This document shows positions 18,832-19,969 of a stretch of 64,000 nt of DNA, one piece after another. Position numbers and translations under genes: made by a program. The DNA is taken from positions 12,606 through 76,605 of IMG/VR virus record IMGVR_UViG_3300014204_000165, one strand, 5' to 3'. Position 1 is the stretch's first letter. Each line of letters begins with the position of its first letter. The stretch is from a virus. Its lineage: Duplodnaviria > Caudoviricetes. The notes beneath the pieces were generated by a model, which searched no databases, was not told where the DNA came from, and saw nothing but the letters and a program-made list of their open reading frames with translations.

Positions 18832-19858
18832 TTAATATCGAAGAATAGCAGCTATACCACCAAACACCTTACGAAGTTGTTCGCCTTCTTCGAATTCTGT
18901 TGATATTATGTTAACTTTGGTACTAAATTTAGATGTCAATTCTTCTAGTGCTTTTTCATGGGATGAAAGTAACAACGTTTTAACTCTTCCGGTTAGAAGG
19001 GCATCTTCCACGGATTTTCTTCCATATAATATTGCACCGTCTTTGCTAAGCAGTGTAAAGAAACTTCTCATTATGTTACGTTGCTTCACTAGTTCGGTTT
19101 CTTTTAAGAGTTCCTCGGCATTTTGTATTGTTTCCTTTATACCTTGGAATCCAGTATAACCAACATCCACAACACCGGTAATCTTTTTTCGAAGTTCGTG
19201 ATGCAAATATTCACTATCATTGAAATCATTTTTCGTGAGTCCTGGGCCACTTATTATAATTCCGGAAAGGTCTTTTAAATCAAGTAATTCTTTTGAGATA
19301 TTATCCGCACTTGATTTAAACCAATCAATGATTGCAAGTTGTCGGTTTTTCTCAAATCGCTTCGCAGACTGTCCGCCTCTACTCATTTTCTGAGGAACAT
19401 TACTTTCGTCTTCAAAAAGGACATTAATAGAAGTTCCTTGTAAGGTAACTAAGGTAACTTCATGCAGGTCCAGGCAAATAATCGCATGTTTTGGACCTTT
19501 ATCTTGCATGCTTTCAAGAGGGTCCAAAAAGAATTCTGATCCACATCGATAGATAATACCTTTAAGTGGCTTAGGAACTGCTATAGCCTCACTTATCCAA
19601 CCAGTTGATGTTTCACCGACAAAGATAGCATAATGCCCATCAGATAAGGTTTTTAACTTTTCCAGACAACTCTTGATTGCAGATATAACTGCTTGTCGAG
19701 TCACACGAGATTTGATATTCTCAGCTTTTCCTGCTTCGTCGCGCAAAAGACCGGCAGCATCTGGTACTTTTCCTTCAGGAACATATAACGTGATTAGTTC
19801 TGTTCCTTTGCCTCTTAGTTCACACAGTGTGCTAAAGACAGTAGTTGTTAATGGTCAT
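18832..19858 (-). CDS. prf1: Archaeal peptide chain release factor aRF1, 341 aa, needing a +1 frameshift at CTT-TAG (19837-19832)
   Basis: GTELITLYVP, NIKS, YxCxxxF (YRCGSEF), GGQ and C-terminal FGGIAAILRY motifs; SD AGGTGA plus ATG 19858 lies in a different frame from the body. Confidence 0.9.
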
Positions 19859-19877
19859 TTAATTCACCTATTTTATA

Positions 19878-19933
19878 TGGAGCATAGTGGAATCGAACCA
19901 CCCCGAATAACCTTTCGTAAGCCATTTTGCTCC
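19878..19933 (-). ncRNA. D-armless tRNA-like element (55 nt plus discriminator A)
   Basis: GGAGCA/TGCTCC-A acceptor stem, T-arm GGTGG-TTCGATT-CCACT, one central arm that pairs only on the minus strand (G-U pairs). Confidence 0.6.
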
Positions 19934-19935
19934 TA

Positions 19936-19969
19936 ATCAAGAAAAGAAAGGTGTTGATTTGCACCTCTC
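19936..19969 (-). terminator. Hairpin plus U-tract (terminator or attenuator-like)
   Basis: GAGAGGTG-CAAATCAA-CACCTTTC followed by TTTTCTT. Confidence 0.4.

Follow-up and report, generated by a model that had tools for sequence, protein, structure and literature searches.

Our analysis indicates that a lineage of tailed archaeal viruses probably uses programmed +1 ribosomal frameshifting at a shifty stop codon to express a compact release factor, aRF1, in a manner that would be self-limiting; we place the probability of this reading at roughly 80%. The gene lies on the minus strand of a 64-kb stretch of DNA (the window), which corresponds to positions 12606-76605 of a 76.6-kb IMG/VR virus record. 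An earlier note on this DNA had proposed that the aRF1 gene needs a +1 shift at a stop resembling that of bacterial prfB, and this was borne out in that the layout is conserved and under selection in a viral lineage. Judged from the sequences, a requirement for frameshifting in aRF1 expression is very probable, and we infer that the slip is ribosomal and takes place at the P-site tRNA.

A split aRF1 gene in a tailed virus

A Shine-Dalgarno-like AGGTGA (19864-19869, minus strand, as are all features below) stands 5 nt upstream of the ATG at 19858, which opens a short leader ORF in the 0 frame (19832-19858). Similar runs occur in relatives, specifically GGTGA at equal spacing to the leader ATG in L002 and L005, and AGAGGTG in L079. 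The leader comprises the ATG and seven further codons (ATG ACC ATT AAC AAC TAC TGT CTT, or MTINNYCL) and ends in a TAG at 19834-19832 that is followed by C, such that slip codon, stop, and next base form the heptamer CTT TAG C (19831-19837). The aRF1 body (18832-19836) is in the +1 frame, where it begins TTT AGC ACA CTG and extends for 334 codons from the TTT at 19836, followed by a TAA at 18834-18832. It has no internal stop, so that one shift is enough for the whole aRF1, a product of 341 aa, while readthrough of the TAG in the 0 frame would add just three codons before a TGA. Upstream, the body frame is closed by a TGA (19855-19857) that overlaps the leader ATG, and its first ATG, GTG, or TTG is the TTG at 19746. 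The 30 body-frame codons after the shift (STLCELRGKGTELITLYVPEGKVPDAAGLL), which together with this TTG (19746-19744) occupy 19744-19833, include the GTELI strand. Further downstream, the translation contains the NIKS stop-codon recognition motif (AAT ATC AAA TCT, 19708-19719), the YxCxxxF motif in the form YRCGSEF (19531-19551), and the GGQ motif for peptidyl-tRNA hydrolysis (19369-19377). Gene callers give a truncated ORF of 304 aa. Every sequence claim that the earlier note had made for this gene holds, from the Shine-Dalgarno and eight-codon leader through CTT TAG C to a +1 body containing NIKS, YxCxxxF, and GGQ; re-reading also gave the same closure of the body frame by an upstream TGA, with no ATG, GTG, or TTG until 19746, and the same absence of a Shine-Dalgarno-like run beside the shift site.

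The predicted protein scored above the cut-offs of the Pfam models eRF1_1, eRF1_2, and eRF1_3 (29.2, 104.4, and 61.7 bits, respectively), and the closest solved structure was the aRF1 of Aeropyrum pernix (PDB 3agk), which matched over its full length (E 5.5e-50). An AlphaFold (AF2) model built from 14 clade sequences had a mean pLDDT of 84.5, and its top Foldseek matches were the aRF1 structures 4af1 and 3agk. In the model, residues 14-19 form a strand and residues 24-38 a helix, each predicted to be the first of its kind in the stop-recognition domain; both fall in the start-less segment and are lost if TTG 19746 is the start. The domain 1 stop-recognition motifs and the GT(S/E) loop are complete (GTELI, AENIKS, and YRCGSEF all present), the catalytic GGQ is invariant across the clade (RGGQSA, residues 153-158 of protein P0001), and P0001 also has a C-terminal AAILRY, a GILRY-like motif. 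By its sequence, then, the gene product is a compact, virus-specific archaeal class-I release factor. It has in common with canonical aRF1 (PDB 3agk, 4af1) the three domains, NIKS, YxCxxxF, GGQ, and the C-terminal ILRY. However, it is about 335 aa long, against about 370-415 aa in canonical aRF1, its N-terminal helix is cut to a few residues, and the domain 3 insertion of Methanosarcinales-type aRF1 is missing.

The same-strand neighbours of the gene are baseplate and tail-fibre genes, from which we conclude that the virus is tailed. Its genes end in TAA (54), TGA (35), and TAG (22), with a coding density of 0.88 under code 11; stop-codon reassignment was considered and rejected, as density did not rise meaningfully above this value with any stop read as sense. 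Searches with ARAGORN, and with Rfam at the gathering threshold, found no RNA genes in the 64-kb window, and there was no support for Methanosarcina as the host.

Between the baseplate gene and the aRF1 leader we noted a tRNA-like element of 57 nt (19878-19934, minus strand), made up of an acceptor stem, a T arm (GGTTCGATTCC), and one central hairpin. It scored 21.8 bits against the Rfam tRNA-Sec model (E 0.04), well under gathering, with a fold of -18.1 kcal/mol (z -2.0), and it may be a tRNA or att remnant. A wastewater variant about 94% identical to the window has 289 other bases in place of 19870-19941, which implies that the aRF1 cassette does not need the element.

Distribution of the shifty-stop layout

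Protein searches placed the window's aRF1 in a tight group of about 20 compact aRF1s (~330-340 aa) at 54-85% identity, with cellular aRF1s no more than 41% identical to the clade (about 35-41%). The nearest clade members were all called as N-terminally truncated proteins, with caller lengths of 304, 317, 272, 224, and 206 aa. Since gene callers truncate the aRF1 genes of this clade, annotation pipelines miss the true product.

The N-terminal DNA was readable for 12 distinct members, with P0003, P0005, P0010, P0011, P0014, and P0015 outside this count. The shifty-stop layout was present in ten of the 12, that is, a short ATG-led ORF running into YTT and then TAG or TGA, with the body in the +1 frame. 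Leaders were 5-22 codons long and ended exactly at the site stop. YTT-T followed by two purines was invariant in the ten sequences, in which the stop was TAG in seven, TGA in three, and TAA in none, and the base after it was C in eight. The sites themselves read TGT CTT TAG C in the window, TGT TTT TAG C in L002 (and L083) and in L005 (and L085), CGT TTT TAG C in L003, AGT TTT TAG C in L080, TGT TTT TAG T in L092, and CGC CTT TAG C in L095 among the TAG types; the TGA types were TGT TTT TGA T in L043, TGT CTT TGA C in L079 (and L081 and L082), and TAT CTT TGA C in L093 (and L094). In seven of the ten, the stretch of body frame that separates the upstream stop from the site contains no ATG, GTG, or TTG. 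The other three do have a body-frame start, which the gene callers took (GTG in L092, ATG in L093, and TTG in L095), and by their sequences these genes could bypass the shift. The remaining two distinct members, L006 and L096/L097, have an ordinary continuous gene, indicating that the shift is not obligatory for function. At the junction, shifted genes encode L or F, and the intact relatives have I or V there. The conservation of a slippery stop among homologs, on which the earlier note had proposed to check its reading, was thus upheld, with YTT plus TAG or TGA kept in ten of 12 distinct clade members.

Among more distant, cellular-type aRF1s, a YTT-T-stop within 20 codons upstream of GTELI was found at none of 47 loci, and a wider search for a slip-competent upstream stop found none at 45 loci. 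Its recurrence in nine other diverged sequences and its absence from these 45-47 cellular-type loci argue that the layout is more than chance. In phylogenetic reconstruction the viral clade was monophyletic (support 100/100) and separated from cellular aRF1s by long branches. The shift layout was found throughout the clade, with TAG and TGA types interleaved, and the intact genes were placed one in a basal and one in a nested position.

We found no members of the clade in GTDB representative genomes, where the best match was 36% identical. In INPHARED, a full aRF1 was absent from the archaeal viruses and phages, and the sole match was a 31%-identical partial one to a gene of Halorubrum virus BJ1 whose annotation is putative cell division protein. 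P0001 and P0011, each used as a single query against IMG/VR, gave no matches, and an alignment scan of the same database gave L079 as the only match. Two viral records of about 77 kb, G000 (TAG type) and G001 (TGA type), both with 39% G+C, show essentially no similarity by tblastx outside the aRF1 gene and a single short region. The aRF1 cassette is therefore present in viral genomes that are otherwise unrelated.

Several loci had features of their own. In L096/L097 (2100-4011), a 37-aa remnant of the N-terminus of another aRF1 (MDLKNVKGRATEIISLYVPENK...) lies upstream of the intact aRF1; the remnant is terminated by a stop, after which comes a 265-aa ORF with no Pfam matches, an arrangement that looks like gene replacement or insertion into an older aRF1 copy. 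Genes for RtcB, a proteasome subunit, and an intein-bearing terminase are in the vicinity. The frameshift-type aRF1 of L003, a Logan contig (SRR31558126), has rubredoxin, PP2C phosphatase, radical SAM, and DUF362 genes around it, surroundings that resemble a tailed virus less than those of the other loci do. The asparagine of NIKS is not invariant in the clade, the motif being CIKS in L080 (P0017) and SIKS in P0011. Finally, seven cellular-type loci from a hot-spring metagenome (L010, L011, L013-L016, and L020) have no ATG in the aRF1 frame before the conserved N-terminus and a nearby ATG in another frame; their conserved sequence, GTT/ATT TTG AGY/AAC GAR AAA, suggests a TTG start. L018, which is related to these hot-spring loci, has a body-frame ATG.

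Integrity of the site and selection on the start-less segment

Sequences covering the stretch came from a landfill run, its probable source, and from runs of two other studies. Wastewater contigs from two runs of one study other than the source span 19819-19869 without an indel. One contig (X4 record 11), about 94% identical and at a depth of 27, has no indel at the shift site, and another (X3 record 8) has five mismatches and one gap, the gap being away from the shift site. The separate assemblies L083, L085, and L082 show the same sites as L002, L005, and L079, respectively. The concern raised earlier, that an indel error had created the split, is therefore answered by contigs from a second study that cross the site without one. 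The stretch was in no run recorded as RNA, the wastewater 'RNA-Seq cDNA' runs being flagged as probably DNA.

For the selection analysis we used the 31 codons from the slip codon TTT to the first body-frame start of the window. Among the closer sequences, dN/dS across these codons was 0.03-0.15, with dS above 1 and synonymous sites near or beyond saturation. Such values point to strong purifying selection and argue that the start-less segment is translated in the body frame. Eleven of the 31 residues are invariant across nine sequences, and at ten of these the third base is free. The slip codon TTT is the only invariant residue with a fixed third base, and the stop begins with that last T. In the alignment, a G-T-Y-T-T-T block was invariant. 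The absence of TAA and the C after the stop in eight of ten sites fit selection for slow termination, and may also reflect coding constraint on F-S or F-D.

These results bear on an alternative in which the split arose through an error of sequencing or assembly, the gene is a pseudogene in decay, or the protein truly starts at TTG 19746. The 304-aa truncated ORF given by gene callers would agree with it. However, independent assemblies agree on the shift site, the layout is common to ten diverged sequences, dN/dS is 0.03-0.15 in a segment that would be untranslated, and every catalytic and recognition motif is intact. This alternative is already contradicted by the data, and we give it almost no weight.

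A single-base difference was seen elsewhere in the gene, in that L081 and L082 are identical to L079 over 1040 nt except for one extra G (CAC GAA to CAC GGA A), 380 nt past the shift site, which breaks the body frame mid-gene. From the sequence, either the allele is inactivated or the two assemblies share an error.

How the frame would be shifted

In the mechanism we propose, ribosomes would start at ATG 19858, read eight codons, and then pause, with the P site occupied by tRNA-Leu on CUU and the A site by UAG-C. A release factor acting at this point would free the 8-residue peptide, and no aRF1 would be made. If termination is slow, the P-site tRNA would move from CUU to UUU, AGC would be decoded, and the 341-aa factor would be produced. 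In the UUU-type relatives, tRNA-Phe would re-pair on UUU one base on, with AGC (Ser) or GAY (Asp) decoded next.

We found no purine-rich Shine-Dalgarno-like stimulator, of the kind by which frameshifting is raised in prfB, conserved in the ten sequences, the sequence upstream of the window's slip codon being AACAACTACTGT, and no conserved downstream RNA structure, with RNAalifold giving -1.9 kcal/mol for eight shift regions; both results count against the model. As for the start of translation, L080 and L092 have a TTAAATA box 23-24 nt upstream of the 0-frame ATG. An archaeal promoter box at such spacing is typical of a leaderless mRNA that begins at that ATG, which favours the 0-frame ATG over a body-frame GTG as the true start where both are present. 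In the window, a ATATAAAA box is located 12-19 nt upstream of the ATG; if it is a promoter, it would put the transcript start downstream of the ATG, which is against the model.

Two ways of reaching the body without ribosomal slippage can be weighed against the same sites. The leader might be an ordinary uORF, with the body translated after re-initiation or from a non-canonical start such as the CTG at 19827-19825. A very short leader is favourable to re-initiation in many systems, and this CTG, two codons after the stop, is present in six of the ten sequences, but three relatives have CTA or CTT at this place and in L095 a deletion has removed the region, which makes re-initiation at the CTG unlikely. 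Moreover, the CTG comes after the invariant TTT and the conserved F/L-S/D residues, seven of the genes are without a canonical body-frame start, and the invariance of YTT-T would be left unexplained. We consider this reading quite improbable. Still less probable is slippage of RNA polymerase on the T run, by which a minority of mRNAs one T shorter would restore the frame. Six of the ten sites do contain five Ts (as in TGT TTT TAG), but the window, L079, L093, and L095 have only three, and neither the stop nor the re-pairing codon would need to be conserved. Productive transcriptional slippage is not known to occur on T runs as short as three, and it is thus unlikely given that four of the ten sites have only three Ts.

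Feedback, fixed attenuation, and the identity of the stop

With a programmed ribosomal frameshift as the preferred reading, the question becomes whether its yield responds to physiology. Because the slip competes with termination, yield should drop as total release-factor activity, host plus viral, rises. On this analysis we lean slightly towards a feedback step in which aRF1 yield would be set by the release-factor level. aRF1 is expected to read all three stops, and host aRF1 is present, so the loop would sense total termination capacity and not the viral factor specifically, a point against feedback in that its regulatory gain would be less obvious.

Alternatively, the frameshift may be real and act as a fixed attenuator, so that aRF1 would be made at a low and constant level, or leader and protein in a set ratio, with no physiological response to the release-factor level, a reading we regard as possible though somewhat unlikely. 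It would be in keeping with the absence of both a Shine-Dalgarno stimulator and conserved structure, the constant presence of host aRF1, the existence of intact relatives, and the free variation of TAG and TGA with viral stop usage unchanged. On the other hand, slippage against termination at an A-site stop is kinetically tied to release-factor activity, as established for prfB, and the lack of TAA and the C after the stop in eight of ten fit slow termination.

The earlier note had described the switch as keyed to UAG, which was not supported, since TGA takes its place in L043 (TTT TGA T) and in L079 and L093 (CTT TGA C). The NIKS, YxCxxxF, and GT-loop sequences showed no difference between TAG-type and TGA-type proteins. 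Stop usage in the TGA-type virus G001 (TAA 61, TGA 33, and TAG 24) was in proportions as in the TAG-type virus; we accordingly rejected the idea that the sensor stop tracks viral stop usage, the two types using stops alike.

Comparison with known systems and implications

The viral layout resembles that of prfB in that a release-factor gene is divided between a short ORF in the 0 frame and a body in +1, that the slip codon, CUU (or UUU), has a U after it, and that the A site holds an in-frame stop and then C; the prfB heptamer CUU UGA C is identical to the site of L079 and L093 (CTT TGA C). The expected logic, competition between termination and slippage, is also the same. In contrast, aRF1 has the aRF1/eRF1 fold and is not homologous to RF1/RF2, the viral site is without the Shine-Dalgarno-like stimulator 3 nt upstream, and the factor is encoded by viruses. 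Furthermore, the viral stop is UAG or UGA and aRF1 is presumably omnipotent, whereas RF2 is codon-specific, and the site is 5-10 codons from the start (22 in two cases), against about 25 in prfB. Being non-homologous to RF2 and lacking the Shine-Dalgarno stimulator, the viral aRF1 works like prfB and is not a member of that system.

A second likeness is to Mimivirus R726 and Megavirus mg280, which encode an eRF1-type factor with UGA readthrough and a frameshift at internal positions (PMC3521657). These, too, are virus-encoded a/eRF1-family factors with recoding at an internal stop, read as autoregulation. They differ in having two recoding events in giant viruses of amoebae, compared with one +1 shift near the start in tailed archaeal viruses. 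Jeudy et al. 2012 described release-factor autoregulation by recoding as exclusive to bacterial release factors, Mimivirus and Megavirus excepted, and as absent from archaeal and eukaryotic homologues (PMC3521657). None of the literature searched describes recoding of an aRF1 from an archaeon or from an archaeal virus, and the only published recoded a/eRF1-type genes found were Mimivirus R726 and Megavirus mg280. A term search of a 2021 review of archaeal recoding gave no mention of aRF1, prfB, or a shifty stop (PMC8211752).

The viral genes would represent convergent evolution, with the same control logic placed on a non-homologous release factor, and they indicate that tailed viruses of archaea have a dedicated and diverged release factor of their own. 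The site is also a compact and portable test case for +1 frameshifting on archaeal ribosomes, at about 30 nt and with no Shine-Dalgarno stimulator or RNA structure, and the clade supplies natural variants of it (CTT or TTT, TAG or TGA, leaders of 5-22 codons). We see roughly even chances that a shifty-stop sensor of termination capacity arose independently here in a third release-factor lineage, with aRF1 made only when termination is limiting. If true, the virus could top up release factor on demand, for example when it is depleted by viral translation, by stop suppression, or by a host defence.
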